Shown: in pieces, positions 1 through 23,269 of the stretch | How the letters are laid out: each line of letters starts with the position of its first letter | How positions within the stretch are numbered: the first letter of the stretch is position 1 | NCBI GenBank assembly: GCA_963816185.1 | Contig: CAWFJJ010000028.1 | Location: forward strand, 579,791 to 643,790 | Length of the DNA: 64,000 bases | Source of the DNA: Thermoanaerobaculia bacterium | GTDB taxonomy: Bacteria > Acidobacteriota > Thermoanaerobaculia > UBA5066 | Direction: 5' to 3' | Translations under genes and position numbers: made by a program | The notes under the pieces: generated by a model | The model's database searches: none | What the model was told of the DNA's origin: nothing | What the model saw: the letters and a program-made list of their open reading frames with translations, nothing else

Positions 1-1959
1 CCGCTCGCGCCCGTGCGCCGGGACCGCTCGGAGAGGTCCGGAGCGTTCCGCCTCCGCACGAAGGCCGGCGACGCGACGGCCGACGAAGTCGTGTGCGCCA
101 ACGCGACCGACGTCGCGAGCTTCGTCCGACGGGCGGTCGATCACAAATGGCCCGTCGCGTCCGACGGTCCCGAGCGCGCCGCGCGATTCGGCGACTTCCT
201 CGTCCTGACGCGCACGCGCGACCACCTCGACGCCTACGCGCGCGCCTTCGAGGCGCTCGGCATTCCCGTGGACGTTTCGGGGAGCAGGGCGCTCCCGATC
301 TCGAAGGGCCTCGCCGAGCTGCGGCCCTTTCTCGCGGCCGTCCAGGATCCGGACGACGACGTCTCGGTCGTCGCGTTTCTTTCCGGCCCTCTCTCGGGAG
401 TCGACGACGACGCGCTCTACCGGTTCCACCGGGCGGGTGGACGTTTCTCCTACCTCGTCGATCCACCGCCGGGAACGGACCCGCGGATCGAACGTGGTCT
501 GGACCTCCTCGCGAAGGCCCGGAGGGACGTGAACGCGCATCCGGCGGGTGCGGCCCTCGGCCTCATCTGCGACAGGCTCGGCCTCGTTGCACGCCTCGCC
601 GCCGGGCCCGAGGGCCGGACTGCCAGCGGAAACCTCCTGAAAGTCCTGGCGCTCGCGAGGCGCCTCACGAGCGAAGGGCTTTCCTTCCGGGACGTCGTCG
701 AGCGGCTCGCGGAGGATGCGCCTTCGCTCGATCTCGAGGAGATGAGCGTCGAGCCAGTCGATGCCGACGCGGTCCGGCTGATGAACCTTCACCGGGCCAA
801 GGGTCTCGAGGCTCCCATCGTCGTTCTCGCCGAGCTCGGCTCCTGGAGGAAGGCGGAGCCGAAGCGTCACGTCGCGCGCGGGGCGGCGGGCTCTCGCGGC
901 TGGTTCACCGCGGGCTTCTGGATGCGACCCGAGGGCCGTGCGAATCAATGGGTCGTGACGGCGACGCCGCCCGACTGGGAGAACCGGCGGGCGGAAGAGG
1001 CGGCATTCGAGGAGGCCGAGAAGATACGTCTCCTCTACGTCGCCGCCACCCGGGCACGCGACACGCTCGTCGTGAGCCTTCGGGAGGACAAGCCGGAAGT
1101 CGGAACCTGGGCGCCGCTGAGGTCCGGCCTGAAGGAGCTTCCGGTCGCGGTCGCGGAGCCTCGGCGTCTCGCCCCGACGAAGACACCGTCGCTCGCGGCG
1201 GAGCTCGCCGGGGCGCGGAAGTCGATCGCGGAAGCGCGCCTCCGGGCAGCGGCCCCTTCGTACTCGGTCACCCCCGTCACGGCGCTCGCGAAAAGAGAAG
1301 GGCCTCGCGCGCCGGCGGCGGCCGAGAACGCTCGCGGCACCGCTTGGGGACGCGTCCTGCACCAGCTCCTCGAGACGGCGATGCGAACGCCCGGCATCGA
1401 GCTTCGTCCTGTTGCGGAGAACCTCCTCCGCGAGGAAGAGCTCGGGCCGGCGCTTCTCGACGAGGCGCTCCGCGTCGCCGAGTCGGTGACGTCTTCGCCG
1501 CTCTGGAAGCGCGCGCGAAACGCAAAGCGCCGCTTCGTCGAGGCGCCTTTCGCGATGATGGTCCCGTCGGCCGACCTCGGCGTCCCGGGCGGACCGGAGG
1601 AGACCCTCCTCAGGGGAGCGATCGACCTCGTCTTCGAAGAGGACGGCGTATGGCACATCGTGGACTGGAAGTCCGACGCCGTCGGCGACAACCTTCCCGC
1701 GCTCGTCGCGCACTACGCGCCGCAGATCGCGCACTATCGCAAGGCGTGGGAAGCGCTCACGAAACAGCGGGCGGTCGCTGGGCTCTATTTCATGGACAAC
1801 GGACACCTGGAATGGCTGGAAGACGAGGAAAGGAAGAACGAGGAGAAGGGAGAAGATTCTTTGAAAGGGGTTAGGGACACGCCGCCGCCTGAAACGAAGC
1901 CTCCCCAGGCGCCGAGCGGTCGGTTCAAACAAGGCTCTTTACCATTCGAAGAAGATTGA
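1..1959 (+). CDS. addA: AddA/UvrD-like helicase-nuclease, C-terminal part (5' end outside window)
   Basis: SF1 helicase motifs MNLHRAKGLE and RLLYVAATRARD, followed by a RecB-type nuclease domain (RGAIDLVF...IVDWKSD...Q..HY). Confidence 0.85.
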   Translation, partial: PLAPVRRDRSERSGAFRLRTKAGDATADEVVCANATDVASFVRRAVDHKWPVASDGPERAARFGDFLVLTRTRDHLDAYARAFEALGIPVDVSGSRALPISKGLAELRPFLAAVQDPDDDVSVVAFLSGPLSGVDDDALYRFHRAGGRFSYLVDPPPGTDPRIERGLDLLAKARRDVNAHPAGAALGLICDRLGLVARLAAGPEGRTASGNLLKVLALARRLTSEGLSFRDVVERLAEDAPSLDLEEMSVEPVDADAVRLMNLHRAKGLEAPIVVLAELGSWRKAEPKRHVARGAAGSRGWFTAGFWMRPEGRANQWVVTATPPDWENRRAEEAAFEEAEKIRLLYVAATRARDTLVVSLREDKPEVGTWAPLRSGLKELPVAVAEPRRLAPTKTPSLAAELAGARKSIAEARLRAAAPSYSVTPVTALAKREGPRAPAAAENARGTAWGRVLHQLLETAMRTPGIELRPVAENLLREEELGPALLDEALRVAESVTSSPLWKRARNAKRRFVEAPFAMMVPSADLGVPGGPEETLLRGAIDLVFEEDGVWHIVDWKSDAVGDNLPALVAHYAPQIAHYRKAWEALTKQRAVAGLYFMDNGHLEWLEDEERKNEEKGEDSLKGVRDTPPPETKPPQAPSGRFKQGSLPFEED

Positions 1960-2741
1960 AGAACGTCGCCCTCGCCCGCCGCTCACTCGACGCGCTTCTC
2001 GTCGCGCTCATGGCCTCGGGCCTCGCGGGCTGCGCGTCTTCGATGTGGGAAAGGACCGAGAAGATCTCTTCGAGTGGCTTCGAGGCGCGCCTGTACGTCC
2101 CCAAGGTCTGGGCGCCGCTCCTGCCCGGCTCGGCGTATCCGAACAAGCGCGTGCCCGTTCCGGCGAGGGGCCGCCCCTCCGTCGTCGTCGTCTGTCCGGT
2201 GTCGGGGAAGTGCCCGAAGAAGGAGCTCCTCGGGCCTCTCGCGGAGCGAGGGTTCGTCGTCCTGCTCTTCGAGAAGTCGCCGAAAGAGCCGCCGAGGGCG
2301 GATTTGCTTCGAACCCGCGCAGAGAGCAAGGACGCAGCAGTAGGCTGGCTCTTGATCTCGCCCACCGAGGATTTTCTTAGAAAGGGTATGGGGCCGGCAG
2401 GGGCGGCTCCCGCTGCCGTGGCGATTTTGCAGAGCCGCAGGTCCGATGCAGACGCGCTTCCCTCCCTTCCCTCCCCTTCTAAGAAAGTCTTCAGCGACGT
2501 TTCCCGCGGCGCCGACGTGGCCGCCCTGCCCGGGTCCCCCTCCCCCTCTTCCCGTTCTCAGAAACTCCTCGGCGGCGCCACCCGAAGAGTGCTGCTGGAG
2601 GCGCTGCTCGGGTCCGAAGCAAATGTTTCTTCCGACGGCGTGATCGTAAAGCTCTACGCCCCCGACGCCGCCGGACGCCTTCCCCGCGAGGCTTACCGCG
2701 ACGCCGCTGAGTGGCTGGCGGGCGAACTCGGGGCGCGTTGA
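1956..2741 (+). CDS. Hypothetical lipoprotein, possibly a degenerate alpha/beta-hydrolase fold
   Basis: Lipobox-like LAGC; RPSVVVV and LAERGFVVLLFE resemble dienelactone-hydrolase segments; no GxSxG; overlaps the addA stop. Confidence 0.55.
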   Translation: MKNVALARRSLDALLVALMASGLAGCASSMWERTEKISSSGFEARLYVPKVWAPLLPGSAYPNKRVPVPARGRPSVVVVCPVSGKCPKKELLGPLAERGFVVLLFEKSPKEPPRADLLRTRAESKDAAVGWLLISPTEDFLRKGMGPAGAAPAAVAILQSRRSDADALPSLPSPSKKVFSDVSRGADVAALPGSPSPSSRSQKLLGGATRRVLLEALLGSEANVSSDGVIVKLYAPDAAGRLPREAYRDAAEWLAGELGAR

Positions 2742-2775
2742 CTTCCGGAATCCCGAGCGATTTAGAATCCGTCGC

Positions 2776-5578
2776 ATGAGCATGAAAAACGAAGGCGCCG
2801 TCCGGGCAAAAGGGGTTCTTCACCCATGGCAGAGGAAGCTCTACGGGCTGCTCCTCCTTCCGCTCGGGCTCATGGCCGCGAACTCGATCTACCTCGTGTC
2901 GTTCACGAAGATCTCGTCGTTCTACATGGGGATGCTCCTCATGCACCTCGTTCTCGGGGTGCTCATCGCGATCCCGTTCCTCGTCTTCGCCTGCACGCAC
3001 GGCCCGCGAATGCTCGCGAACATCCGCAACCGGAAGGCGAAAGCGGCCGGCATCACGATCGTCGCCCTCGCGCTCATGTGCATCTCGACGGGCGTCTACA
3101 TGGCTCTCAAGGGCGCGACGCTCACGCACCGCCCCGTCTATATCGCGCACGTCTGCGCGATTCCGCTCGCCCTGACGGCCTTCATCCTTCACCGCCGCGC
3201 GGCCGTTCACAAGCTGCACTTCAAGCGTCTCTTCCAGTGGGGCGGGGCCGTGGCGGCGTTCCTCGCGGGAATGGCGGTTCTCCACAAGATGGAGAAGCCG
3301 CCACAGCGCATCGTGAACAAGAACGGCGACACGCAGTTCTTCCTCTCCTCGGCGGAGACGTTCGACCAGGGCCTGCTCGACGGAAAGAAGCTGGCCGCGA
3401 ACCAGTACTGCCAGGAATGTCACCCGGATTCCTACAAGCGCTGGGAGAAGTCCGCGCACCACTTCTCGTCCTTCAACAACCCCTTCTACCGCCGTGCTGT
3501 CGAGCTGGTGGCCGACCGCGTCGGCCGCGAGAAGACGAAGTGGTGCGCCGGCTGCCACGACCCCGTCGTTCTCTTCACGGGTCAGATGGGCAAGGCCACG
3601 ATGGCGTCCTTCTCGTACGACCAGTTCGAGGCGCAGCAGGGGCTCACCTGCATGTCGTGCCATTCGATCGCCGAGGTGAAGGACGTCCGCGGCAACGGCG
3701 GCTACGTCGTCGAGGAGAGCAAGCAGTACCCCTTCGCGTTCACGAAGAGCAAGGCTCTCAAGGAGGTCAACAAGCTCCTCATCCGGATGGAGCCCTCCCT
3801 CCACCGCCAGACTTTCATGAAGCCGTTCATGCGGACGCCGGAGTTCTGCGCGACGTGCCACAAGGTGGCCCTCCTCCCGCCGCTCAACGATTACCACTGG
3901 CTGCGCGGCCAGAACCACTACGACGCCTGGTTCGACTCCGGCGTCTCGGGCGTCGCCGTCCGCTCCTTCTACGACCCGCCGCAGACGAAGGCCTGCCGCG
4001 ACTGCCATCTGCCGCCGATCGAGTCGACGGAGTTCGGCAACCGCGACGGAAAGATCCACGACCACCTCTTCCCCGCCGCGAACACGGCGCTCCCGGCCAT
4101 CCGGAACGACCAGCAGACGATCGACGACATCCGGAAGAAGATCCTCGTCGGCTCGCTCTCGATCGACATCTTCGGCATCCGCCGCGGCAACGACCGTCGT
4201 CCCGCTCGGCCCCACGCTGCCCGCGCTGAGGCCGGGCGAGACCGTGGACGTCGAGGTCGTCGTCCGCACGCGCACGCTCGGCCACCCGTACACGAACGGC
4301 ACCGCGGACTAGAACGAGACGTGGGTGGAGTTCCACGCCGACGACGGCCCGCGCCGCGCTCTGATGGCGTCCGGCACGCTCGACGCGAACGGGCGCCTCG
4401 ACCCCGCGGCCGACAAGATCTCGCAGCTCGTCATCGCCCACGACGGCTCGGCCATGGACCGTCGCCAGCCGCAGGACATCCACGTCCCGCTCTTCAACAA
4501 CTTCATTCCGCCGGGCGCGGCCCGCGCCGTGCACTACCGCTTCACGGTCCCGAAGGACGCGAAGGGATCCGTGACCCTTTCGGCCGCTCTCGACTACCGG
4601 AAGTTCTCGCGCGACTATTCGATCTTCGTGGGCGGTCCGAACGCGCCCGAGCTCCCCGTCACGAAGATCTCGAGCGACAGCGTGACGCTCCCGGTCGCGC
4701 CGGCCCCCGAGGGGACGCTCGCGAAAGACGTCAAGCGCGGCAACCCCGACTGGCCCGAGAGGCAGTGGATCCGCTGGAACGACTACGGCATCGGCCTCTT
4801 CCTCCAGGGCGACCTGACGGGCGCCTCGTACGCCTTCGCGAAGGTGGCCGAGATCGCCACGGACAAGCCGGACGGCCCGCTCAACCTCGCGCGTGCGAAG
4901 CTGCAGGAGGGCGATCTCCCGGCCGCCAAGGCCGCGCTCGCGGAATCCGAGAAGCGACGGCCGAACTGGGGGAAGACGCAGATCTTCCGTGCGCTCGTCT
5001 CGAAGGAGGAGGGACGCCTCGACGACGCCCTCGCGGACCTTGGCCGCGTCCTCGCGAAGTTCCCGAAGGACCGGTTCGTCCTCAACCAGGAAGCGCGCGT
5101 CCTCTACCTCGCGGGCCGATACGCAGAGGCGCTGCCGTACATCGACCGCGTCCTCGCGATCGACGGCGAGGACCTCGCGGCGCACTACAACGCGATGCTG
5201 TGCCTGAAGGCGCTCGGCCGCGCCGAGGAAGCCGCCGCCGAGGAGAAGTGGTACCTCTATTTCAAGGATGACGAGGCGTCGCGCGCCGTGCTTGCCGATT
5301 ACCGAAGGGCGCATCCGTACGACAACCGCGAATCGCTTCCGGTTCACGTCCACGACGAGCCAACCCCGCCGAAGGCCGAGGAGCCGCCTTGGATCGCCGA
5401 AATCGGACCGAAGGGCTACGCATACAAGGGAGCCGTTCCGCCGAACGAGATGGTCCTGCGCGACGACCGGCCGCCGGGCGCCCCGCGCCCCTTCGCGAGG
5501 CCCGAGACGCCGAAGACGGCCAAGGGACGAGACGCGACCAAGGCCGTGCCGGTCGCCGCGATCCAGATTCCCGAGTGA
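2776..5578 (+). CDS. Membrane-anchored pentaheme cytochrome c with C-terminal TPR repeats (frameshift near 4195, in-frame TAG at 4310)
   Basis: About 5 N-terminal TM helices; CxxCH x5 (CQECH, CAGCH, CMSCH, CATCH, CRDCH); reading continues in the 4325..5578 frame with TPR-like helices. Confidence 0.8.
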
Positions 5579-5612
5579 ACGCGTCCGGAGGGCGCCGGAG
5601 TATCGTCGCAGC

Positions 5613-6110: not shown

Positions 6111-6122
6111 CCCGGCCGACTG

Positions 6123-8834: not shown

Positions 8835-8891
8835 GTTACGGACTTTACGATGGTTTCCCGCCGCGCCCGCTGCGATAACATTTCCCCCCTC

Positions 8892-10643
8892 ATGACCATT
8901 CTAAGAAATCTCTCTCTTCTTCTCGCATTCGCGTTCGCCACCGCGGCCTGCCGGAAACCCGAGACGAAACCCGTCTCCCCCACTCCGGCTCCCGAGCCCA
9001 CGCGCGTCTCCTCTTCGATCCGGTTCGAGGACGTGACCAAAGCCTCGGGCGTGGCGTTCACGCACGTGAACGGCGCCGCCGGAAAGAAGTGGATGCCCGA
9101 GACGATGGGCTCGGGCGTGGCCGCATTCGACGCCGACGGCGACGGCCGCATCGACCTTCTCTTCGTGAACGGCCGCTACTGGCCGGGCGATCCCCGCGGC
9201 GCCGCGGGACAGCCAACGCTCGCGTTCTACCGCAACGTCACGGAGAGAGGCGGTGCGATCCGCTTCGAGGACCGCACGAAGGAGAGCGGGCTCGCGGTCT
9301 CTCTCTTCGGCATGGGCGTCGCCGTCGGCGACGTGAACGACGACGGGTTTCCCGACGTCGTGATCACCGGTCTCGACGACATCCGCCTGTTCCTGAACGA
9401 CGGAAAAGGCCGCTTCCGCGACGCGACGAAAGGCTCCGGCCTCGTCGGCTCGGGCTGGGGCACGTCGGCGGCGTTCGCGGACTTCGACGGCGACGGCGTC
9501 CTCGACCTTTTCGTCGGCCAGTACGTCAACTGGACGCCGAAGACGGACATGTACTGCTCGCTGGACGGGAAGACGAAGTCCTACTGCACGCCCGAGCGCT
9601 ATCCCGGCACGCCCTCGCGGCTCTACAAGGGCCTCGGCGGCGGGAAGTTCAAGGAGATTACGAAGGAGGCCGGCCTCGTGAACCCGCTCGGCAAGGCGCT
9701 CGGCGTCGCGGTGCGCGACGTCGACGGCGACGGCCGCATCGACATCGTCGTCGCGAACGACACCTCTCCGAATAATCTCTGCCGGAACGAGAAGACCGTG
9801 AACGGCATCCCGGTGTTCCGGGACATCGCCGTCGAGGCCGGCATCGCCGTCGGAGAGGACGGCCGCGCGCGCGGGGCGATGGGCGCCGCGTTCGGCGACA
9901 CGAAGAACGACGGCGGAGTCTCGCTCGTGATCGGCAACTTTTCGAACGAGATGTGGTCCGTCTGGAGCGCCGGGCCGAAAGGCGACTTCTTCGTGGACGA
10001 GTCCGTGCAAAGCGGCATCGGCCGGACCTCCCTTCTGCCGCTCACATTCGGCGTCGCGTTCGCCGACTTCGACCTCGACGGCGTGCTCGATCTCGTGGGG
10101 GTTAACGGACACGTGGAGACCTCCGTCCAGGACGTCCAGCCGACCGTGACGTATCGGCAGCCTCCGCTCCTCTTCCGTGGGCTCGGCGCCGGCCGGTTCG
10201 CCGACGTGTCGTCTCAGGTCGGCGCGAGCTTTCTCGTCCCGATCGTCGGGCGCGGCCTGGCCGTGGCCGACCTCGACGGCGACGGACGGCCCGACCTCGT
10301 CGTGACCGAGAACGGAGGCCCCGCGCACATCTTCCGAAACGTCACCGAGACGCCCGCGCACTCCGTGAGGCTCCAGCTCGCGACGAAGACGAAGAATCGC
10401 GGCGCCCTCGGAGCCCGCGTGACGTGCTCGATCGGCGGCAAGACGCGCGTGGACGAGGTGTCGGGCGGCGACGGCTATCTCTCCGTCAACGACCGGACAA
10501 TAACGCTCGGCCTCGGCTCGGCTGCGACGCTCGACGCGGTCGACGTCCGATGGCCGGACGGCACGACGGCCTCCGAAAAGGGCCTCGCGCCGGGCCTCTA
10601 CCGGTGGGTCGAAGGGGAATCCCCGGCGGCGGTGAAACGCTAG
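8892..10643 (+). CDS. CRTAC1/ASPIC-UnbV family FG-GAP repeat lipoprotein
   Basis: Repeated DxDGDGxxD motifs; C-terminal GARV...GLG...VRWPDG; lipobox TAAC. Confidence 0.88.
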   Translation: MTILRNLSLLLAFAFATAACRKPETKPVSPTPAPEPTRVSSSIRFEDVTKASGVAFTHVNGAAGKKWMPETMGSGVAAFDADGDGRIDLLFVNGRYWPGDPRGAAGQPTLAFYRNVTERGGAIRFEDRTKESGLAVSLFGMGVAVGDVNDDGFPDVVITGLDDIRLFLNDGKGRFRDATKGSGLVGSGWGTSAAFADFDGDGVLDLFVGQYVNWTPKTDMYCSLDGKTKSYCTPERYPGTPSRLYKGLGGGKFKEITKEAGLVNPLGKALGVAVRDVDGDGRIDIVVANDTSPNNLCRNEKTVNGIPVFRDIAVEAGIAVGEDGRARGAMGAAFGDTKNDGGVSLVIGNFSNEMWSVWSAGPKGDFFVDESVQSGIGRTSLLPLTFGVAFADFDLDGVLDLVGVNGHVETSVQDVQPTVTYRQPPLLFRGLGAGRFADVSSQVGASFLVPIVGRGLAVADLDGDGRPDLVVTENGGPAHIFRNVTETPAHSVRLQLATKTKNRGALGARVTCSIGGKTRVDEVSGGDGYLSVNDRTITLGLGSAATLDAVDVRWPDGTTASEKGLAPGLYRWVEGESPAAVKR

Positions 10644-10646
10644 CCG

Positions 10647-12215: not shown

Positions 12216-12249
12216 ACCCGATTCTCGCTTACAATCGGAGTTCAACATC

Positions 12250-13529: not shown

Positions 13530-13607
13530 GTAAGTACCAACAGGCTACAAGCTCGGCGCAGAATGAGAATGATCAAGGTGCTCTAGATCTCGGCTTTGAG
13601 GTCGCCT

Positions 13608-13943
13608 TCAACGACCGTCAGCCGGAGGCAAGAGCGGGGGTTCCGCCGGAGGGCCCTGCGTCGGAGCACCGGTTCGACCCGTTCGCCGGGTGACGAAAAG
13701 CACCGCGAGCGTCCACGTCGGGGCGAGGTCGATCCCTGGGACGAGCTCGGCAAGGAAGGCCGGAAAGAAGGCCCAATGCCATCCGAGAAGAGCGACCATC
13801 GCGGCCCCGACCGCGAGGTCGAGCGCCGCGTCGACGACCTCGAGGGCGCCTCCGGCGAAGAGCGGCAGCAGCCCGATTTGAACGGCATCGGCCGCGACCG
13901 CGATGATTCGCGCGGCGAGGACGCGGCGTTGCGCTTCTTGCAC
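13608..13943 (-). CDS. Small membrane protein
   Basis: Hydrophobic helices, LLGWHWAFFPAFLAELVPGIDLAPTWT; TAACGT just upstream. Confidence 0.6.
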   Translation of the reverse strand: MQEAQRRVLAARIIAVAADAVQIGLLPLFAGGALEVVDAALDLAVGAAMVALLGWHWAFFPAFLAELVPGIDLAPTWTLAVLFVTRRTGRTGAPTQGPPAEPPLLPPADGR

Positions 13944-14007
13944 GCGAGCACGTTAGGCTCGGCGGGCGGCGGCGGTCAACGAGCGCGACCCCGAAGCGGT
14001 ATCCGGC

Positions 14008-15054: not shown

Positions 15055-15205
15055 GGAATGCCTCCCTTCGGGCAATGCCGTTTTTCTTAGAGGGTGAATA
15101 CGGAATGCTCTCCGCAGGGTTTCGGCGCAGCGCATGCGGGGCGTGGCGCCTTGGCTCCCTTCCTCGCGGCAGCCATTCACCGACACAGGTCTTATCATCG
15201 CGGGC

Positions 15206-15619
15206 ATGGCTCCTTCCGCGAAGCGCAGATCCGCCTCGCCGGGCAAGCGGACCGCCGGGGCGGCCCCGAAACGGCCCGGGTTGTCGTCGTCCAAGCCGTT
15301 CCTTCGTTTCTATGTCCCGGCGGACCTGAGCAAGAAGACGCTTTCGGTCCTCAACACGCTCGAGGAGGCTCCGGACGCCACCTTGTACCGTGACGCCCTG
15401 GCGGACGTCGTCGTGGAGCTGACGAACAGCGGCATGGACTACTACTTCATGAAGCCGCTGAAGCTCGCGAAGGCCGGCTTCATCGTGCAGCAAACGGCGG
15501 ACCTCGGCCTGGCAGGCGCGCTGCGGGTGATGGGATCCGTTATCCGTAACATCATCACCCGCATGGATGGGCCTCAACTGCTGTCGGTCTGCGCCTCCAT
15601 CCGGCAGTTCATGCTTTGA
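15206..15619 (+). CDS. Hypothetical protein
   Basis: ORF with typical GC3 bias and non-shadow amino acid composition. Confidence 0.55.
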   Translation: MAPSAKRRSASPGKRTAGAAPKRPGLSSSKPFLRFYVPADLSKKTLSVLNTLEEAPDATLYRDALADVVVELTNSGMDYYFMKPLKLAKAGFIVQQTADLGLAGALRVMGSVIRNIITRMDGPQLLSVCASIRQFML

Positions 15620-15634
15620 AGCTCCCGCCGCGCC

Positions 15635-17389
15635 TTACCTTCCGACGAACGTCCTCTTTTCCTCGAGCTTCCCGTCGCGCAGGGTGTAGAGGCGGTCGGC
15701 GGCGACGGCCTCGAAGCGCGCCGCGGGCTCGGTCTTTCCCGGCGGGATGACATCGATCGTCGCCACCGTCGCGTCGCCCAGCCCGAAGTGCAAGGGCACC
15801 CATGACCCCGAGGCGTACGAGGGCCGGAGAATGAACTCCTGCACTTGCCGGACGCCGCCCGCCGTCACGACGACCTTCGTCCCGAGGACGGTCCGGCGGT
15901 CGGCCCCCGCGACCGGCAGGATCTCGAGCGCATGGGTATGCGACGCCGTGGAGTTCCTCATGAGGCGGATGCCGCCCACGATCGCCCCGATCGCGACGTC
16001 GAGCCGCCCGTCGCCGTCCACGTCGCCGGCCGCGAGCCCCCGGGCCGAGAGGCGCAGGGCCGCCCAGTCGCCCGATCCGGCCGTGACATCCGCGAGGCGG
16101 CCGCCCCCTTCGTTGCGCCAGACGAGCGGCGGCTGCTTGTAGTGGTGGTCGCCGAGGCCGTAGACGCCCAGGCCGTTCTTGCGGAAGAACTTCGCGAACG
16201 TGAGGAGGATGCGTGGTACGAGGTGGCCGGACGCCGCCACGAGATCCACGCGGCCGTCGTCGTCGAAGTCCGCGAAGTCGGCTCCCCATTGGACATACGG
16301 GAAAGAGGCGCGGTCCACCCCGGAAGCCTCCGTCGCATCGTCGAAGAGAACGCCGTCCACGTTTCGATACAGCGTGTCCGGCTCTCCGGCGAAATTCGTC
16401 ACGAGAATATCCGGCCGCTCGTCGCCGTCCACGTCGCCGATCGCGATCCCCATGCCGGCGCGCGCGATCTTCTGCTCGCGCGCGCCCGCGCCAGCTTCCA
16501 CCGTCACATCCTCGAAAGTGCCATCTCCGCGGTTGTGGTAGAGAACGTTCGGCACGCGGTCGTTCGTGACGTAGAGATCGGGCCGGCCGTCGCCGTCGTA
16601 GTCGAAGAAGACCGCGCCGAGACCACGGCCGCCCGCGTTCGTGACGCCCGCGGACTTCGAGCTCTCGTGGAAACGCCCCTCCGAATCCTGCACGAGGAGG
16701 GTTGCCGGCTGGCCGTCGTAGTCTTCCGGCATGCGCACCTGGAGCGACGGAAACGACTGCTCTTTCTTGTAGTCCGTATCGAGATACCCGACGACGTAGA
16801 GGTCGACGCGACCGTCCCCGTCGATATCACCCGCCGCGAGGCCCACGGCATAGCCCGGCGCAACGAGCCCGCGCGCGGCGCTCTCCTCGCGAAACGTCCC
16901 ATCCCCGAGGTTCTTCCACAGCGACGTCCTGCCCACTCCCGTGACGATGAGATCGAGGCGTCCCGAGCCGTCGAGGTCCACCCACGACGCGCCCATCGTC
17001 CAGCCGCACGATCGGATTCCGGAGTGCGCCGTGACGTCCTCGAACGTCCCGTCGCCGCGGTTGCGGTAGAGGACGCCGCAAGGCCCCGCATCCGGCTTCT
17101 TGCCGTTCGAAACGGAGCCCGTGAAGAAGAGGTCCAGGAATCCGTCGCCGTCGAAATCCCCCATCGCTACGGCCGCGCCCATGGTCCCGAGGTTCCGCCC
17201 CCGGCGGAGGTCGGTGTGGTATTTGAACTTCAGCCCGGCGCGCTTCGTCACGTCGGTGAAGCGGATTGGGGGAAGAGGAGGAGAAGAGGAAGATTCTGTG
17301 AATGGGTAAGAGGGACTGGGCGACAAGAGAAGCGCGGCGAGTGCGGCTGTTGTGAGGGAATTCACCCTTCTAAGAAAAAACATCCTCAC
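15635..17389 (-). CDS. CRTAC1/ASPIC-UnbV family FG-GAP repeat protein
   Basis: Multiple DxDGDGxxD repeats, LYRNRGDGTFEDVT, C-terminal LHFGLG. Confidence 0.88.
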   Translation of the reverse strand: MRMFFLRRVNSLTTAALAALLLSPSPSYPFTESSSSPPLPPIRFTDVTKRAGLKFKYHTDLRRGRNLGTMGAAVAMGDFDGDGFLDLFFTGSVSNGKKPDAGPCGVLYRNRGDGTFEDVTAHSGIRSCGWTMGASWVDLDGSGRLDLIVTGVGRTSLWKNLGDGTFREESAARGLVAPGYAVGLAAGDIDGDGRVDLYVVGYLDTDYKKEQSFPSLQVRMPEDYDGQPATLLVQDSEGRFHESSKSAGVTNAGGRGLGAVFFDYDGDGRPDLYVTNDRVPNVLYHNRGDGTFEDVTVEAGAGAREQKIARAGMGIAIGDVDGDERPDILVTNFAGEPDTLYRNVDGVLFDDATEASGVDRASFPYVQWGADFADFDDDGRVDLVAASGHLVPRILLTFAKFFRKNGLGVYGLGDHHYKQPPLVWRNEGGGRLADVTAGSGDWAALRLSARGLAAGDVDGDGRLDVAIGAIVGGIRLMRNSTASHTHALEILPVAGADRRTVLGTKVVVTAGGVRQVQEFILRPSYASGSWVPLHFGLGDATVATIDVIPPGKTEPAARFEAVAADRLYTLRDGKLEEKRTFVGR

Positions 17390-17441
17390 CCGCGCCCCAC
17401 TGTAGGTCGTCGCAGTCGGCCCGGTTCACGAGCGAGCAAGA

Positions 17442-20400
17442 TTATCTTTCCCCCAGAGCCTCTCTGAAGCGTTCCGGCCCGACCTTTCGCGTGAGCGTCT
17501 CCTCGAGGAACTTCGGATCGGGATGGTGCTCGGAGGGGGGATAGGGGTATGCCGACATCGCATGGAAAGGCCAGGGCTCGTACGACTGGCCCGTGACGGT
17601 GTTCTTGTCGAAGTCCTTGTCCCAGCCGTCGGACACGAGGATCCAGTCGCGGCGCCAGCCGGGCGCGAGCGGCGGCAGGTTGGAGGCGTCGTACGCGATG
17701 TGAATCGCGTCTCCGCCCTTGAACGCGACCCAGCGGTCGTCGGTTTTCGCGAGGAGCTCCGTGACGTCGCCGAGGCGCGTGACGCGGCCGGCCAAGTCCT
17801 CCCAGCGCGGAGCGGTCGAGACGTCGCCGTGGTCGAACACTTCAGGGCCGTCGGGCGTCTCGCGATATCCGCGCGGGAAGCCGCGCTCGGTGAGGACGGC
17901 CGAGGACGGCGCGAGCGCAGTCGTGACGACCTCGACCGCGGGATCGTTCACCGTGACGAACGCCTCGTCCCAGAAAATCGCCATCGTCGTTCGAATGCGC
18001 ACGCGCGGGTCTTTCGGGTCGATGAGGCCGGTGAGGTCGACGGGCATCGTCTTGGTCTTGCCCGCCGGGAACCCGAACGACTCCATCGCGACCTTCCAGC
18101 CGCCCGCGCCATCCGGAACCTCGAGGATCGGGGGAAAATGCTCGAGGTCTTTCCGCTGCGAGAGGGAGACGTTGATGGATGTATCCGTGTAGAAGATCCA
18201 GCCGGTGAGGAAGAGGACGATGCGATCCCCTGCCTTCACGTCGCCGAGGTCGAGCACCAGGGAGTGCTCCTGCCTCACGCCCTGATAGAACATCTCGGGC
18301 CCGGGGCCGACGTAGACGTGATCGCGGTGCGCGAGGCGAGAGGTCACATCCTCGAGGCGGCCGGAGGCGTCCGAGAAGGCGGCGCGCAAGGGCCTCGGGT
18401 GCGCTACCGTGAAGAGCTTCTTCTCCGGGACGCCTGGAATCGTCCGCTCGTTCGGGACGACGCCCGTGCCCTCGGGATGGTCCACGGCCACGAGCGTCGC
18501 CTCGTCGAGGTACGCGACCTCCCACAGCTCCTCGGTGTAGTCGAGGAGAAGGCGGCGATTCGCGTCCGGCTTCAAGGTCTCGCCGTCGATGAAGAGCCAC
18601 TCGCGCGTGTCCGCACCTGCGAGGTGGACCCCGTCGTAGAGGAGACCGATCGGAGAACGCCCGAGCGCGTCCGAGACGAAGGTCCACACTCCGGTCTCGC
18701 CGTTGCGAGCGTAAACGAACGGGCACGAGCCCTTGAGCTGCTGAACCTCCTTCACGACGGATTTCGATCTCTGGTCGAAGATGTTTTGCGGCACGCCGTT
18801 CGTCCAGGTGGCTCGCACGACGTCGGCTTTCGTGCGCGTGCCGAGGCCGAAATGCGTGGGCGGAATTGCCACCGTACGCGCGACGTACAGATTTCCCGCC
18901 TTCACCTCGACGAGGCTGCCGATGCCGCGCTTGTTCACCTTGCCGGATCCCGTTTGCAGCCCCTCGAGAACGACGTCCAGCCAGCCGTTCGCGTTGCCGC
19001 CGTCGTTGATGAGGACGCTGGTTCTGCCGCCGGCCGAGACGAGGAGGTCGAGATCCCCGTCCTTATCGACGTCGTATGCGAGGAGAGCCTCGATGTTCGT
19101 AAGGCTCGAAGAGAACGAAGAAGAGGATTTCTTAGAAGGGGAAGAGAAGATGGGCCACGCCGGAAATTCGACCGCCGCCCTCGTTGCGGAAGGCGTGGAG
19201 CTCGCCGCCCGCGGTCGCGGCGATGACGTCCGGGAATCCGTCGTTGTCGAAGTCGGCCAGCACCACCGCGTGCATTGCGACCTGTGCGGGCGCCCCGGTC
19301 GCGGCACCCCGGCCAGCCCGTGCGAATTCCTGCCCCGTGCCTTCTAAGAAACTCCCATCCCCTTTTCCCAACAGCAGCCGTAACCCTTTCGACGTGGCGA
19401 CGACCATGTCCGGGATGCCGTCCGCGTTCACGTCCTCGACCGCGAGATCAACCGCGCCTGCCACCCCGAGCGGGACGCTCCGGAAGACGCCCTGGCGGAG
19501 ATTCAGCCGCAGGACGAGATCGCCCTTCGTGTCGATCGTGACGAGGTCCGGGTCGCCGTCGCGGTCCACGTCGGAGACGACGACTTTCCTCGAGGTGAAC
19601 CTCGCGTCGCCCGTCTTCGCGGTCACGTCCGTGAACGTGCCGTCGAGGTTGTTGCGGAGGAGCTGGTCGGGTTTGCCGCCGCCCAAGAGGTAGACGTCGA
19701 GGTCGCCGTCGAGATCGAAGTCGAAGAAGGCGGCGGCCGTGTACGGCGCGGGAATCGGATAGAGAACGGCCGTGCCGGAGTTCGCCAGATCCACCTTTCT
19801 AAGCAATCTCCCGAGGTCCTCCTCGGACGCAGCCGGCGCACGGAAGGAGACCGGAATAGCCGCACCCGCGCCCGCGCGCAGCCCCTCCTCCACCTTCGGA
19901 GAAAACCTCTCGACGGGCAGGCCCATGACCTGCGTGAAGACCTCTCCGAGCGACTGCTGGTAGCGCGGCGTGACGCGCAGGACGTTCTCGAGGACACGGA
20001 CCTTGACGCTAGCGCCTTTGACGTCGCCGCCGCCGACGAGCGCCCTGGCCTGCGCGAGAAACTGGCGCGCTCGGGCGTCGCCGTCCGAGACGAGGGGGTC
20101 GAGCTCCGCGAGACCCTTCGACAGCGCGGCCGCGTCTCCCGCTTCCCCCTCGAGGACGAGCAGCTTCAGGCGCGCGGGCAGGTTCGAGGGCGAGCGGGCG
20201 ACGATCTCGGCGAGGCGCGTGCGCCGGGCCGCCTTGTCGGCCGGCGACGCCGCCGGGTCTGTCTCCACGCTTCGCGCGAATCGCCAGCGCGACTCGAGGT
20301 CGTGAGGGTCGAGGGACGCCGCCTTGTCGAACGCGGCGCGGGTGCCCGCGGGCCGGTTTCGCTCGTTCTCGATGACCGCGCGAATCGCGTAGAGGTCCGC

Positions 20401-20769
20401 CCGCTCTCCCAGCGCGAGCGCCTTGCCGAGGAGAGCTTCCGCGCCCGGAAGATCCTTCTCGCGCAGGGCGGCGATCGCGCCGTTCGCGAGCGGCAGCGCT
20501 TCGCCCGGCACCGCGTCCGCCAGTTTCGCGAACGTCGAGCGGGCCTCCTTCGGCTTGTCCTCCTCGAGCTGAGCGAGCCCCACGTTGCGCAGCGTCAGGA
20601 TGCGCGACGCCTGCTCGGGGGAGAAACGGGGAGAAGAGGGATTTTCTGCTGAAGAGGAAGACGACATTCCCACGGCGGCGGCTACGAGGCTCGCGGCGAG
20701 CATCGGGAGACGTCCGAGGAGAGACCGGTTCTGAGAAGGGGGACCGACGAAGGAGCGAATCCGACTCAT
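17442..20769 (-). CDS. Large TPR + FG-GAP + ASPIC/UnbV protein with extended C-terminal domain (frameshift near 19270)
   Basis: ORF 19132..20769 (TPR, FG-GAP) joins ORF 17442..19307 (HFGLG, KGSCP, GFPAGK, GWDKD). Confidence 0.8.
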
Positions 20770-20786
20770 CGAGACGCATTATTGCC

Positions 20787-20882
20787 GGAGATGCTCCTCG
20801 GCCGCCGGGAGTCAAGGGTCATCGACCGCTACGCGGCGCGCGGAGCGCGCCCTTGACACCCGCCGGCCGAGGAACACATTCC
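20787..20882. repeat. Imperfect inverted repeat of about 32 bp, each arm containing TTGAC
   Basis: 20787-20818 reverse complement CCCTTGACTCCCGGCGGCCGAGGAGCATCTCC vs 20850-20882 CCCTTGACACCCGCCGGCCGAGGAACACATTCC. Confidence 0.7.
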
Positions 20883-20888
20883 AACTAT

Positions 20889-20912
20889 CGGCGGCTGCAT
20901 TCGCAGCCGCCG
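20889..20912. terminator. Perfect 10-bp GC hairpin; possible terminator or RNA-stabilising stem
   Basis: CGGCGGCTGC-ATTC-GCAGCCGCCG, intergenic; no immediately adjacent U-tract. Confidence 0.45.
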
Positions 20913-20958
20913 CATATAAGAAGAGTTTCCTCTTCCGTTCTCCCTTCGGCTTCTTTCT

Positions 20959-23247
20959 TCATCTTCTAAGCAGATCTCTCTTCGGCTCTTTCCCCTGAAC
21001 CCACCTCACGAGCGAACCCGCCGGAACGTCTTTGAGCTCTTCCTTGGTGCCGTCCGGCCAGCGGACCTCGATGACGTCCGCCGCTTTCGCGCCGCCGAGA
21101 CCGAAGAGGAGGTCGTGCGACGACTGCGAGAGGTACGACGAGCCCGCGCGCACCTCGCGAAGCTGCACCTTCCCGCTCACCCGCAGGCGGACCACGGCGC
21201 CGAGGGCGTCGCGGTTCATGCCGTGATCGGCCGAAAGCCGGACGACGACGCGCCCGGCGCCGCTCCCCCACCCGTTGCGATAGACGAGAAGCGGCCCGCG
21301 GAAGCACGAGACGACGACTTCCGGCGCGCCGTCGCCGTCGAGGTCCGCATACGCGAGGCCGCGCGTGTCCTCGAGCGTGTCGAACCCTTCCACGAACGCC
21401 CGCTCCTCGAACGTGCCGTCCCCGCGGTTCCAGAAGAGCTTCTTCGGCGTCCGCGAGGCCATGCCGTTGACGCCGAAGTCGATGCCTCCCCACACGCCGT
21501 CGTGGAAGTTCACGCCTTCGCGCCCCATCGCGTTCCAGAACGAGATTTCGTCGTCGACGCCGGTCGTCGCCCGGAACATGCCGTTCACGACGAGAAGGTC
21601 CTCGCGGCCCTTGCCGTCGAGGTCCACGAACTCCGTGCCCCAGGCCCAGCCGCCGTCTGCGACCCCGGCCGCCTCGGACGTGCGTTCGAACTTGAGGCCG
21701 CCGAGATTGCGGAAGAGGCCGTCCCCGTCGGAGCGCCGCTGCATGATCTTCGCCATGTGAGAGCGCACCAGGCTCGCGCCCGGAAGAGGCGGCATGGGCC
21801 AACGCGAGTCGTTCAGGATCCAGCGATAGGGCGTCCAGTAGTCCGAAACATGCAGGTCCCAACGGCCGTCGCCGTCGTAGTCCCCCCACGCGACGCCCAT
21901 TCCGTAGCCCTCGTCCTGCGTGCCGTTCGTCCGGGCGATGTTCACGAAGAACGGGTGGCCGGGTGTGGACCGGTTCTCGAAGAATCCGTTCTTGCCGAAG
22001 TCGTTCGCGACGTAGAGGTCGTCGTCGCCGTCGTCATCCGCGTCGCAAGCTTCGGCGGCCAGGGCCCAGCCCACGTCGCCGAGGCCGGAGGCCGCTGTTT
22101 CGTCCACGAAGAAGGGATGCCCGTCACGCTCCACGTTCCGAAAGAAACGGTCACCCGGGCCGTTGACGCCGTTGTACGCGGGACCCGTGGCGCGTGCATC
22201 TCCGTAGCTCGCGACGAAGAGGTCGACGCGGCCGTCCCGGTCGGCGTCGAAGAGCACCGCGGACGTGAACGGCCCCGAAAGGCCGACGAGCCCCCACTCC
22301 TCGGTGACGTCGCGGAACTTTCCGTGCCCGAGGTTCTTCAGGAGGCGGCACGGGGAAATGTGATTCGAGAGAAACAGGTCCGGCAGCCCGTCCCCGTCCA
22401 CGTCGGCCGCGACGCCGCCGGAGGCCTCCATCTCCGGCAGGAGATCGAGTCCGGAGCCCGACGTCGCGTCCCGGAAATGACCGGTTCCGTCGTTCAGGAA
22501 GAGCCGCGGGTGGAGGCCCGGGACGACGACGTCCACGGCGCCGTCCCCGTCCACGTCCACGAGGAGGACTCCCGGGCGGTGGTGCGTCGCGGGGAGGCAG
22601 AGATTCGTCGACTCCACGGGGTCGAGGGGCTGGTGGGTCACCGCGAGGCCGCGCGAGGCGGCTTCTTCGAAGAGATGCGGCACGCCGCGCTGGATTTCGG
22701 CGGGGCCGCCGACGGCGATCGCCGATCGCAACTGCCAACGCGCCCTCGGAGAAAGATCATCGAATTTGCCTCGAAAAAGAGAGAGATCGAAGAGGGCCAA
22801 AGCCGCAACGCGCTCCAGATCATCCGCGCGCGCGAAACCCTGCAGGCGAACTTCGACGCGCACCGTCACGTTCGAAGAGGATTTCCTCTGAAGGTCGACG
22901 ATGCGGATCGCCGAAGCGCAGCGGAGATGACACGCCGAACGCCAGCGTTCCTCCAGGTCTCGCATAGGAAACGCCGCGGCCGACTCCATTGCGCCAGATC
23001 TTTCCGTATCACCGTCTAAGAAATCCTCTCTTTCTTTCTTACTTTCTAAGAAATCTTCTCTTCTCTCCTTCCCCCGAACCTTCTCTCCCGATCCATCTGC
23101 CTGAAAATCCCTCCTCAACTCGTCGACGAGGGCCGACGTCCCGAACGAGTAGTCCTCCAGCGTCGGCATGGGCCGGGTGCCGCCGCAAGCCGGCGCAAGG
23201 ATCGCCAGGCCGAGGAGCCCGAACAACGCGATGGGACGCCTCACCAC
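20959..23247 (-). CDS. CRTAC1/ASPIC-UnbV family lipoprotein with N-terminal extension
   Basis: Lipobox APAC after GTG at 23247; FG-GAP repeats; GSSYLSQS..LLFGLG..VRWPDG. Confidence 0.85.
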   Translation of the reverse strand: MVRRPIALFGLLGLAILAPACGGTRPMPTLEDYSFGTSALVDELRRDFQADGSGEKVRGKERREDFLESKKEREDFLDGDTERSGAMESAAAFPMRDLEERWRSACHLRCASAIRIVDLQRKSSSNVTVRVEVRLQGFARADDLERVAALALFDLSLFRGKFDDLSPRARWQLRSAIAVGGPAEIQRGVPHLFEEAASRGLAVTHQPLDPVESTNLCLPATHHRPGVLLVDVDGDGAVDVVVPGLHPRLFLNDGTGHFRDATSGSGLDLLPEMEASGGVAADVDGDGLPDLFLSNHISPCRLLKNLGHGKFRDVTEEWGLVGLSGPFTSAVLFDADRDGRVDLFVASYGDARATGPAYNGVNGPGDRFFRNVERDGHPFFVDETAASGLGDVGWALAAEACDADDDGDDDLYVANDFGKNGFFENRSTPGHPFFVNIARTNGTQDEGYGMGVAWGDYDGDGRWDLHVSDYWTPYRWILNDSRWPMPPLPGASLVRSHMAKIMQRRSDGDGLFRNLGGLKFERTSEAAGVADGGWAWGTEFVDLDGKGREDLLVVNGMFRATTGVDDEISFWNAMGREGVNFHDGVWGGIDFGVNGMASRTPKKLFWNRGDGTFEERAFVEGFDTLEDTRGLAYADLDGDGAPEVVVSCFRGPLLVYRNGWGSGAGRVVVRLSADHGMNRDALGAVVRLRVSGKVQLREVRAGSSYLSQSSHDLLFGLGGAKAADVIEVRWPDGTKEELKDVPAGSLVRWVQGKEPKRDLLRR

Positions 23248-23269
23248 GCGGCAATGGTAAAACGGGATC

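Follow-up and report, generated by a model that had tools for sequence, protein, structure and literature searches.

The apparent cluster of palindromic TTCTWAGAA motifs in the window (the whole stretch of 64 kb which was analysed) is a moderately dense stretch, with about a dozen copies, of a short repeat found throughout the genome of this soil bacterium. The repeat is REPIN-like in its architecture and RPE-like (after the Rickettsia palindromic elements) in its behaviour, and it is a member of neither family. We give about an even chance to the reading in which it is selfish or domesticated DNA, specific to its lineage and recognised by a putative protein of that lineage.

We counted 337 exact cores in the source genome (165 on the forward strand and 172 on the reverse strand), where about 3.7 are expected from base composition and 12.7 from an order-3 Markov background; this is a genome-wide over-representation of 27- to 90-fold. 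A flank-scored scan of the same genome gave 611 half-sites. The motif had been taken for a regionally clustered one, and this did not hold: 17 of the 69 bins of 64 kb contain at least seven exact cores, and spans of 21.2 kb with at least seven of them open at 22 of the 337 start points. The site density of the window is ordinary for its contig. Exact cores occur on average once per 15 kb, with up to 7-fold differences between large contigs. The low-GC bins of 10 kb (n=32) carry 3 sites, where the genome-wide average of about 1.2 sites a bin predicts about 38; these bins, nearly devoid of sites, are probably foreign DNA. Between a third and a half of the copies lie within genes and others between genes, as counted on calls from a crude codon-score caller which trims N-termini. 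Within the window, the seven exact cores originally reported are all present (Table 1), the scan bore out that the 64 kb hold no other, and their number is beyond chance, dinucleotide shuffles having a mean of 0.07 and none of 100 shuffles reaching 7. When up to one mismatch is allowed, 16 sites are found against 2.37 expected, all of them within 1857-23052.

The half-site is an oriented unit of about 25-35 nt, composed of a length-variable purine run, (A/T)T, the 9-bp core TTCTTAGAA and GG(K)GAA. As had been claimed, the site has a direction and both orientations occur: over the 337 copies, orientation is set by the central base of the core, a purine-rich flank lying 5' of TTCTTAGAA and GG(K)GAA lying 3' of it. 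In these copies the core is much better conserved than the remainder of the half-site. About half of the half-sites belong to inward-facing doublets and about half are solo; among neighbours at most 400 nt apart in the flank-scored scan, 157 pairs face inward, 7 face outward and 51 are in tandem. The spacing of inward doublets is mostly 45-230 nt, with extremes of 40 and more than 300 nt and a mode of 74-76 nt, where 16 of the 63 inward pairs of exact cores fall. Because they face inward, the two cores of a doublet are able to pair as a hairpin; they do so in 8 of 10 doublet folds, and the fold z-score is at or below -2 in only 3 of 10. The repetition is confined to the ends, 130 of 149 doublet interiors being without any other match in the genome, and the DNA between the ends is unique, whether it is filler that was inserted or sequence native to the gene. 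As every element has an interior of its own, nothing suggests that whole elements were recently copied and pasted. The two arms of one element are not more complementary to each other than are arms taken from different elements (z from -1.8 to +0.7). With no co-variation between arms, the half-sites behave as sites independent of one another.

Doublets are read in frame in a GltD-like gene, RNase R, UvrA, UvrD, RecG, an AddA-like gene, HisA, MurC and MiaB. In-gene doublets lie mostly between or after Pfam domains, and the window copies encode signal peptides, linkers and C-terminal tails. Aligning host proteins, a check which had been suggested for lineage-specific insertions, gave a divided answer. 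The linker segment of UvrA is such an insertion: it is missing altogether (0 nt) from 9 of 11 outgroup loci, and 19 genomes of the genus have 111-405 nt of it, a multiple of 3 in 18 of these 19. Other cores replace native codons, namely both cores of HisA, the right one of RecG and the FLE core of an FG-GAP gene of the window; simple transposition therefore fails to explain these ends, which are rewritten native codons. The view that the constraint bears on the DNA rather than on the protein is directly supported by the HisA codons, by the frame filter and by a rare codon. Among 12 relatives, the A/T-ending codons of the HisA cores are kept in 83 of 90 cases, against 126 of 328 elsewhere in the gene and 0 of 20 in the interior of the doublet. 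The canonical core stands in its stop frame in none of 98 in-gene copies; of the 83 in-gene copies of the stop-free variant TTCTTCGAA, 63 occupy exactly those stop frames. Of the Leu codons, 0.18% are TTA. The core is held by a force acting at the DNA level, and in-gene copies are filtered by the need for an open frame.

Relatives had also been named as a place to look, and all 18 other genomes of this Thermoanaerobaculia genus indeed carry a 13-mer of the motif, with 23-123 copies each; none of the 12 genomes of two sister families has it, and the reversed 13-mer used as a control gave 0 in the same comparison. Further sequence matches carry Thermoanaerobaculia names. Species differ by gains and losses of the repeat: over 122 orthologous comparisons, the relative lacks about 40% of the half-sites, and 17 of 30 half-sites have a clean gap in at least one relative. 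No target-site duplication was seen when filled and empty loci were compared.

In the reading that we favour, the core would be the recognition site of the putative lineage protein (a nuclease, a recombinase or a binding protein), which would spread or maintain half-sites; the family might then work like REP/REPIN doublets and, within genes, like RPEs, with the hairpin as a probable by-product. The in-frame selfish insertion put forward in the original prediction comes closest to this, except that only short ends are repeated and that some of them are native codons. A Y1/RAYT transposase has no match in the source genome, which is 94.9% complete, and is found in 4 of 29 genomes of the genus; at the three of these four loci which were examined, cores do not consistently flank the Y1 gene, and one locus has none. 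Of the 13 inward pairs 400-4000 nt apart, 4 have at least one whole called gene between them. No transposase is among the four such genes scanned, which come from three of these 4 pairs (a ferredoxin, two ABC transporter components and a BirA-like ligase), nor is the gene enclosed by the fourth, the window's own FG-GAP gene, a transposase. The conservation of cores at orthologous sites is not what one expects of neutral selfish remnants and counts against this reading. The conservation profile drawn from the orthologous comparisons may be too high, since alignment programs tend to match identical cores.

Such conservation could also come from a chromosome-wide network of binding sites, in which the 9-bp palindrome is the site of a putative abundant, lineage-specific nucleoid or chromosome-organisation protein and selection keeps the sites, even in genes, and excludes them from the origin region. 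We hold this to be unlikely. It agrees with core codons retained against a strong codon bias, with cores set in native codons, with half-sites which are independent and whose arms are not specially complementary within elements, and with a 4-7-fold depletion of the contig which carries dnaA. The density is 0.28 sites per 10 kb on this contig (C29) and 1.96 on C28, for non-coding fractions of 0.174 and 0.181, and dnaA is located at the GC-skew switch; in the relative G003 an 11-mer of the motif has no match between C4:23,817 and C4:376,704, dnaA being at C4:346 kb. However, the depletions in the two genomes concern one syntenic region and are not independent, and the assemblies are fragmented. 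The absence of about 40% of sites at orthologous positions is a fast turnover for functional sites, which moreover bear length-variable purine/pyrimidine runs and inserted filler, and for the strong inward pairing (157 to 7) we know of no parallel in parS, matS, NBS or SBS. The regional array first imagined does not suit a motif which is genome- and genus-wide; the trend at the scale of the chromosome is real, the dnaA contig being depleted, and therefore a weaker form of the chromosome-organisation idea stands as a rival. An uptake or recombination signal, also raised at the outset, seems to us improbable, as it fits poorly with the density, the clumping and the doublet structure. Here the core would accumulate by biased uptake of own-species DNA and recombination (molecular drive). 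The known signals of this type, DUS in Neisseria and USS in Pasteurellaceae, have a sharp core of 9-12 nt with weaker flanks, are equally frequent in both orientations and clade-specific, lie in native coding sequence in permitted frames and can form inverted pairs, and our repeat resembles them in all these respects, with its 27- to 90-fold excess, its near absence from low-GC, probably foreign DNA and its core embedded by substitution in native coding sequence. Repair genes are among the hosts, a bias which rests on hand-picked cases, and ComEC is present, although bacteria which are not competent have it too (10 of 14 control genomes). The uptake signals already known have a frequency of about one per kb; the repeat is about ten-fold sparser, with one exact core per 15 kb, and is unevenly spread (up to 7-fold between contigs). 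Unlike them, half of its sites form polar, widely spaced inward doublets with a preferred 74-76 nt and low-complexity purine/pyrimidine runs, and whole units appear as indels.

The inverted ends, and a presence and copy number which differ between species, recall a classical MITE family, whose doublets would be the TIRs of non-autonomous transposons with a transposase lost, unassembled or unrecognised; the genome is incomplete, and repeats are often left out of assemblies. We nevertheless assign this little probability, given that interiors are unique in 130 of 149 cases, that spacing ranges from 40 to more than 300 nt, that no target-site duplication was seen in the loci compared, that none of the four genes scanned from 3 of the 4 gene-enclosing long inward pairs is a transposase, that some ends are native codons and that conservation is much stronger in the core than in the remainder of the supposed TIR. 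An element acting in RNA, with a transcript hairpin as terminator, stabiliser, processing site or translation pause at domain boundaries, appears very improbable. A doublet is identical on both strands and would therefore give the same RNA from either direction of transcription, its cores mostly pair in folds, at the position of one copy G003 has a GC hairpin and then T's, and in-gene copies lie in linkers, with rare codons. Against this, the fold z-scores are weak, with no complementarity beyond the consensus, the flanks adjoin 3' ends (70) no more readily than 5' ends (81), there is no orientation bias relative to genes, and about half of the half-sites are solo. No Rfam family matched the repeat.

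The REP doublets, or REPINs, of Proteobacteria (Bertels and Rainey 2011, PMC3116915) are likewise short over-represented units, mainly in inverted doublets, in hundreds of copies, with vertical inheritance, singlets beside doublets, spacers less conserved than the ends and a preferred distance between next neighbours, which is 71 and 110 bp in REPINs and 74-76 nt in our repeat. Our unit differs in having no 20-40-bp stem-loop, no GTAG or CGTC tag and no accompanying RAYT (0 in the genome, 4/29 in the genus), in its entirely unique spacers, sometimes of native gene sequence, in the third to a half of its copies which are in genes, and in arms which do not co-vary. Intragenic REPs are known, notably in replication and repair genes, and CGTC REPs are without a dedicated transposase (Di Nocera et al. 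2013, PMC3733652); our repeat is also without one and, like RPEs and intragenic REPs, is a palindromic repeat set in frame in housekeeping genes, including repair genes, to which it adds loops, linkers and tails. Unlike in RPEs, a stop-free core variant here fills the stop frames, about 25-35 nt are shared at each end and some ends are rewritten native codons. RPEs are conserved over their whole 100-150 bp.

Table 1. Copies of the repeat in the window.
Feature	Position	Strand	Score (bits)
Doublet E1: TTCTTTGAA (1857) and TTCGAAGAA (1945), 88 nt apart	1837..1973	.	
Doublet E2: exact cores 2374 (T-form) and 2477 (A-form), 103 nt apart	2354..2505	.	
Extra right-hand half-site TTCTCAGAA at 2555	2545..2575	-	8.5 (flank)
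Solo half-site, exact core 8899, with pyrimidine run	8892..8935	-	14.6
Solo half-site TTCTTAGAG at 15084, between ORFs	15070..15110	+	12.0
Doublet: TTCTGTGAA (17294, 2 mismatches) and exact core 17368, 74 nt apart	17274..17396	.	
Wide doublet: exact cores 19129 and 19342, 213 nt apart	19105..19375	.	
Weak half-site TTCTAAGCA, TPR/FG-GAP gene 17442-20769	19797..19805	-	3.0 (flank)
Half-site TGCTTAGAA, minus strand, 20964-20972	20955..21000	-	13.9
Two same-orientation half-sites, 30 nt apart: GTCTAAGAA (23014) and exact core 23044	23000..23085	-	17.0, 19.1

We compared the window copies of the source genome (G000) with those of the relatives G003, G008, G011, G012 and G017. Most copies lie in real reading frames, as had been stated, the exceptions being those at 15084, 23014 and 23044, upstream of genes, between them or unassigned; the peptide REDFLESKKEREDFLD, also cited, comes from a long ORF extension which is probably not coding. 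Doublet E1 forms the C-terminal tail (...EDEERKNEEKGEDSLKG...LPFEED*) of an AddA-like helicase-nuclease gene which ends at 1959 and whose PDDEXK_1 domain stops upstream of this tail; it overlaps the TTG start of ORF 1956-2741 (+) and is at the same place in G011, G012 and G017. That ORF, a probable lipoprotein, reads E2 in frame (EDFLRKG...SPSKK); E2 has orthologues in G003, G011, G012 and G017, with length differences in multiples of 3, and its cores pair in the DNA fold (z -1.0). The half-site at 2555 is part of an 81-nt unit present in G000 and G012 and absent from G003, G011 and G017. The one at 8899, with its run, encodes the first residues and the hydrophobic core (MTILRNLSLLLAFAF) of the signal peptide of the FG-GAP/ASPIC gene 8892-10643 (+); its orthologues are exact in G011, TTCGAAGAA in G017 and degraded in G003. 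The site at 15084 reads TGCTTGGAG in G003.

The doublet 17294/17368, whose cores are unpaired in the MFE fold, encodes on the minus strand the signal peptide and the linker (MFFLRRVNSLTTAALAALLLSPSPSYPFTESSSSPPLPP) at the N-terminus of the FG-GAP/ASPIC gene 15635-17383, and is at the same place in G003, G008, G011 and G017. The wide doublet is contained in the minus-strand TPR/FG-GAP gene, where its cores are translated as FLE and SKK, on either side of a native FG-GAP repeat; the counterpart in G003 is a single ORF of 1098 aa (...GNFLEGAG...VFSSPSKKSPSS...), and the gene of G000 has a +1 frameshift near 19162-19166. At 19797 relatives have TTCGAAGAA or a degraded form. The half-site at 20964 makes the last codons (DLLRR*) of an FG-GAP/ASPIC gene ending at 20959, with its purine run outside the gene, and the pair 23014/23044 is in the 5' region of a minus-strand FG-GAP/ASPIC gene, in the divergent gap before an OEP gene. 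Eight of the nine near-matches originally reported do have one mismatch (seven in Table 1, and 20729), the ninth, at 17294, having two. At 22663 and 20729 the flanks of the one-mismatch sites do not resemble the motif (-11.4 and -6.0 bits), and these two sites are probably chance matches. The site at 22663 was missing from the original list.

The seven exact TTCTWAGAA cores of the original prediction (at 2374, 2477, 8899, 17368, 19129, 19342 and 23044) are indeed found at these positions and nowhere else in the 64 kb; the mean of shuffled sequences is 0.07, and none of 100 shuffles reaches seven. When one mismatch at most is allowed, the window holds 16 sites for an expectation of 2.37, every one of them within 1857-23052. 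Among the near-matches that had been listed along with the exact copies, the one at 17294 differs by two mismatches and the one at 20729 has non-motif flanks and is probably due to chance, as is probably an unlisted site at 22663 (one mismatch, non-motif flanks). One of the readings proposed for the cluster was a regional array, which is not supported: the source genome G000 (5.09 Mb in 30 contigs, 67% GC, where the window is C28:579791-643790) contains 337 exact cores, against 3.7 expected from base composition or 12.7 from an order-3 Markov model, and at least seven cores are met per 21.2-kb span from 22 of the 337 start points and in 17 of the 69 bins of 64 kb.

The repeat is specific to a clade. 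The 13-mer ATTTCTTAGAARG is present in all 18 other genus genomes (23-123 copies each) and in none of 12 genomes of two sister families in the same order, the unpublished G019 and G024 being included among these; the reversed 13-mer, taken as a control, has no copy in any genome searched. Public records with several motif matches have titles that name Thermoanaerobaculia, and no published description of the repeat was found in PMC open-access papers or bioRxiv. Copies of the window are found at orthologous places in five relatives (G003, G008, G011, G012 and G017), and since such places are shared across independent assemblies, an assembly artefact is ruled out. As for known elements, the sole Rfam match in the window is a tRNA, and the letters TTCNNNGAA that the core has in common with STAT5 GAS sites are irrelevant.

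The consensus of the 337 copies reads, from one end to the other, a purine run, WT, TTCTTAGAA and GGKGAA. More precisely, once the copies are aligned by orientation, they carry about 20 nt rich in purines, followed by (A/T)T, the core, G/A, G (frequency 0.92), K, G, A and A, and the orientation of such a half-site is set by the central base of the core. One-mismatch variants of the core are rare apart from TTCTTCGAA (287 copies in G000, for a Markov expectation of 145), TTCTSAGAA (64), TTCTTTGAA (60) and TGCTTAGAA (48). An nhmmer profile of the half-site gave 104 matches with E<=0.001, or 397 when E<=10 was allowed, to be compared with the 337 exact cores; its sensitivity did not suffice for such a short motif, and it was therefore replaced by a core-plus-flank score, which retains cores with at most one mismatch and a flank score of at least 4 bits and yields 611 half-sites in G000. 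The reversed genome, used as a control of this score, gave 58 "exact" matches, a figure contaminated by the symmetry of the repeat itself, and the order-3 Markov control is the cleaner one.

Neighbouring half-sites mostly face each other: among those at most 400 nt apart, 157 pairs are inward, 7 outward and 51 tandem. The resulting doublets read the same from either strand. The spacing of inward pairs ranges from 40 to more than 300 nt, with a core-to-core distance of 74-76 nt in 16 of the 63 exact pairs. In predicted folds the cores are paired in 8 cases out of 10, with z <= -2 in only 3 of 10, and beyond the core the complementarity between the two arms of an element does not exceed that between arms of different elements (z from -1.8 to +0.7, 156 pairs). 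Hence, we concluded that the unit of the repeat is the half-site and not the doublet, and there is no sign of selection on hairpin pairing as such. What doublets have in common is their ends only: 130 of 149 interiors have no other match in the genome, while the others lie in paralogous genes, are part of one large duplication or come from a second, nested repeat. Recent transposition was considered for two pairs of interiors and rejected: the near-identical pair on contigs C14 and C24 is part of a larger duplication, and the pair on C25 and C28 has only a third small repeat in common. The C14/C24 copies (C14:3897-4305 and C24:178856-179264) lie in inverted orientation and share about 98% identity across 400 nt or more, which reflects a duplication or an assembly redundancy.

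With a crude codon-score gene caller (3948 genes, 82% coding), 200 of the 337 exact cores fall outside called genes, a three-fold enrichment, and the half-sites well inside called genes amount to 98 of the 287 canonical ones and 83 of the 142 variant ones. By the same caller, half-sites of G000 are not biased towards the starts or the ends of genes, nor towards one strand. As the orientation is unbiased relative to gene starts, reading the purine run and GGTGA as a promoter or a Shine-Dalgarno sequence was rejected, and so was a terminator, 3' gene ends not being preferred; apparent strand runs among the matches listed for G011 are an artefact of the listing. Genes that carry copies in frame include those of a GltD-like oxidoreductase, RNase R, UvrA, UvrD/PcrA, RecG, an AddA-like helicase-nuclease, HisA, MurC and MiaB, the copies lying mostly between Pfam domains or after them. 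In the window it had been claimed that nearly all copies lie in open reading frames; this holds for about 12 of the 16 sites. At 23014/23044, the peptide that had been read stems from a long, probably non-coding extension of an open reading frame.

Genes of the window and the part that copies of the repeat take in them
Gene	Position in window	Strand	Contribution of the copies
AddA-like protein			copies form the C-terminal tail
Probable lipoprotein ORF	1956-2741		copies in frame
FG-GAP/ASPIC paralogue	8892...		copy encodes the signal peptide
FG-GAP/ASPIC paralogue	17383...	minus	copies encode the signal peptide
TPR/FG-GAP gene			cores bracket a native FG-GAP repeat
Fourth window gene			copy supplies the last codons

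Four paralogous FG-GAP genes are gathered within 15 kb of the window (8817-23724); three have an ASPIC/UnbV domain at the C-terminus, and every one of the four has half-sites at its N-terminus, its C-terminus or its linkers. The ORFs 19162-20769 and 17442-19166 (minus strand) correspond in G003 to a single TPR/FG-GAP gene of 1098 aa (L046:4944-8240, minus). In the G000 gene (17442-20769), which is broken near 19162-19166, there is one extra base about 30 nt before a core, and therefore the upstream frame stops at the TAA of this core; the break reflects a frameshift of recent origin or else an error of the assembly. Elsewhere in the window, at 4150-4325, the third-position GC signal changes frame at a point about 170 nt short of where a TPR ORF (4325-5578) has its first start codon, while a multihaem cytochrome-like ORF (2776-5271) remains open across this interval; overlapping genes or a frameshift could account for the switch.

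The force on the core acts at the DNA level, as had been predicted from the odd peptides that it encodes. In HisA, compared among 12 relatives, A/T-ending codons in and beside the cores were kept in 83 cases out of 90, against 126 out of 328 for the other A/T-ending codons and 0 out of 20 for the interior ones. This conservation occurs despite the rarity in G000 of the codons concerned (TTA and CTA make up 0.18% and 0.49% of Leu codons, AGA 2.5% of Arg codons). The reading frame acts as a filter: in-gene copies of the canonical core translate as FLE (29 copies), LR (23 + 12) or SK (34), and none of the 98 lies in the core's own stop frame. The single change of the variant TTCTTCGAA abolishes the stop on both strands, and 63 of its 83 in-gene copies lie in exactly those two stop frames, against codon usage, which favours another frame. 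The 29 cores in the FLE frame represent more than a tenth of the TTA codons of confident genes (210).

Both insertion and rewriting of native sequence occur. In UvrA, the linker segment holding the element measures 0 nt in nine of 11 outgroup loci (one from the unpublished G019) and 111-405 nt in 19 genus genomes, where its cores are full, left only, right only or absent and its length is divisible by three in 18 cases. In HisA, the 76-nt doublet is present and kept in frame in all 18 genus sequences recovered (left core exact in 13, right core in 16), and what separates the cores is native DNA, namely the beta-strand 4 region according to an alignment with solved HisA/PriA structures; the extra residues number only about 10 and are mostly a poly-Ser tract from the pyrimidine run. 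PDB homologues were used here because five nearly complete sister-family genomes (G021, G022, G023, G027 and G029) lack a clear hisA/hisF: a search for PF00977 gave no clear match in them and one marginal match above cut-off, while hisA was found in all genus genomes searched. Beside the right core, the poly-Ser tract varies widely in length between species, in the manner of a microsatellite (18 genus genomes, L071-L089), and G012 has the unit duplicated in tandem; in two MAGs, G006 and G007, hisA stops at this tract in the naive reading frame. The right core of RecG likewise lies within sequence of native length, RNase R has about 20 extra residues, and in an FG-GAP gene of the window a core read as FLE bears the conserved Phe of the FG-GAP repeat.

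Turnover between species was followed in three 20-kb regions with five relatives each (31 half-sites and 122 comparisons, one cluster being without an orthologue). The relative lacks the half-site in about 40% of cases; where it is present, identity is about 85% in the core, a figure which may be flattered by alignment bias, compared with about 64% in the interior and 67% in the flank. A clean gap is seen in at least one relative for 17 of 30 half-sites. Among filled and empty sites, one element is placed after a stop codon, another occupies a position where a GC hairpin stands in G003, an in-frame element of a DapB-like gene leaves its purine run at the empty site, and elsewhere a purine and a pyrimidine run remain, the hairpin part being deleted. 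No target-site duplication, as would flank each copy of a MITE, was seen in these comparisons, in which the ends are low-complexity runs with blurred boundaries. In G011, an apparently CTAG-flanked IS5-like insertion sequence (L158:213-1349, with DUF772 and DDE_Tnp_1; orthologous to G000 C28:478032-478148) occupies the position of a doublet found between convergent genes in other species; its ends are unrelated to half-sites, which does not designate it as the parent of the repeat.

Compared with what PMC3116915 and PMC3733652 describe, the architecture matches REPIN doublets and the in-gene behaviour matches Rickettsia palindromic elements (RPEs) and intragenic REPs. The repeat shares with REPINs an excess of inverted doublets, a preferred spacing and hairpin potential. 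However, a REP unit, as defined in PMC3733652, is an imperfect palindrome of 20-40 bp with a GTAG or CGTC tag at one end, whereas the only palindrome of our half-site is the 4-1-4 core and it has no such tag. REPs flank a single-copy RAYT and are extragenic, while our repeat also lies well inside genes and has no RAYT: the Y1 transposase domain (PF01797) has no match in G000 (94.9% complete) and is present in 4 of 29 genus genomes, and at three of these four loci, those examined, cores do not consistently flank the Y1 gene. RPEs in reading frames, like our repeat as judged from its sequence, keep the frame, but they are conserved over their full length. Similarly, copies of a MITE have length and internal sequence in common and a parent insertion sequence with matching terminal repeats, of which none was found for our repeat in the pairs and insertion sequences examined. 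Of the 13 long inward pairs, four enclose whole called genes, and none of the four enclosed genes scanned, from three of these pairs, is a transposase. With no stem-loop unit or tag, no RAYT, no extragenic confinement and no conserved interior, the repeat is therefore a variant of the REP-like kind, outside the REP/REPIN and RPE definitions.

The most likely reading, to which we give about half of our belief, is that the repeat is spread or kept by a putative protein recognising the core. Two bolder and less likely readings, a network of binding sites and an uptake or repair drive, draw on the rewriting of native codons, the conservation of the core and the depletion of the origin region. Like DUS/USS, the core is over-represented, strand-symmetric and clade-specific. 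DUS/USS are dense and fairly uniform in distribution, with about one site per kb; our repeat has one exact core per 15 kb, large contigs of similar non-coding fractions have between 0.28 and 2.05 sites per 10 kb, and low-GC bins are nearly devoid of it (3 sites in 32 bins). ComEC is present, but its presence is not specific. A macrodomain pattern of the parS, matS, NBS or SBS type may be reflected in the poorest contig, C29, which carries dnaA at the GC-skew switch and is depleted 4-7-fold, in fragmented assemblies and two syntenic genomes: G003 has a 353-kb stretch without matches which includes dnaA, and since this is the same syntenic region it is not an independent replicate.

We regard as rather unlikely the possibility that half-sites were written by a sequence-specific drive or selection and not transposed, the agent being a putative lineage-specific protein, binding factor or nuclease/repair system. 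The 9-bp palindrome and a few flanking bases would then be written into any local DNA, even into native codons of essential genes, and preferably opposite an existing half-site, with fixed polarity; the agent might bind throughout the chromosome while being kept away from the origin region; alternatively, it might be a nuclease or repair system turning near-sites into sites. If this is true, a repeat would not need transposition to spread across a bacterial genome.

Although short palindromic repeats are common in dispersed form, the way in which they spread and the reasons for their persistence are not settled, least of all in families that lack a RAYT transposase. The present one offers several handles: a 9-bp core that can be traced codon by codon in conserved genes, a stop-free variant that flags sites of past reading-frame selection, arms that do not covary, and a genus with 29 or more sequenced species, in which gains and losses can be dated. 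On the practical side, these repeats give proteins extra loops, tails and even signal-peptide segments, and are bound to cause errors when genes of Thermoanaerobaculia genomes are called or aligned.

Finally we must note a second family of palindromic repeats, with arms GATGTCAAGGG ... CCCTTGACATC, which has tens of BLAST matches in G000 (for instance C25:104917-105126, C30:539967-540175 and C24:129879-130198) and is often nested within TTCTTAGAA doublets. It is found in frame in the UvrA of three species (G006, G007 and G012), and also in the G008 orthologue of window positions 17250-17420.
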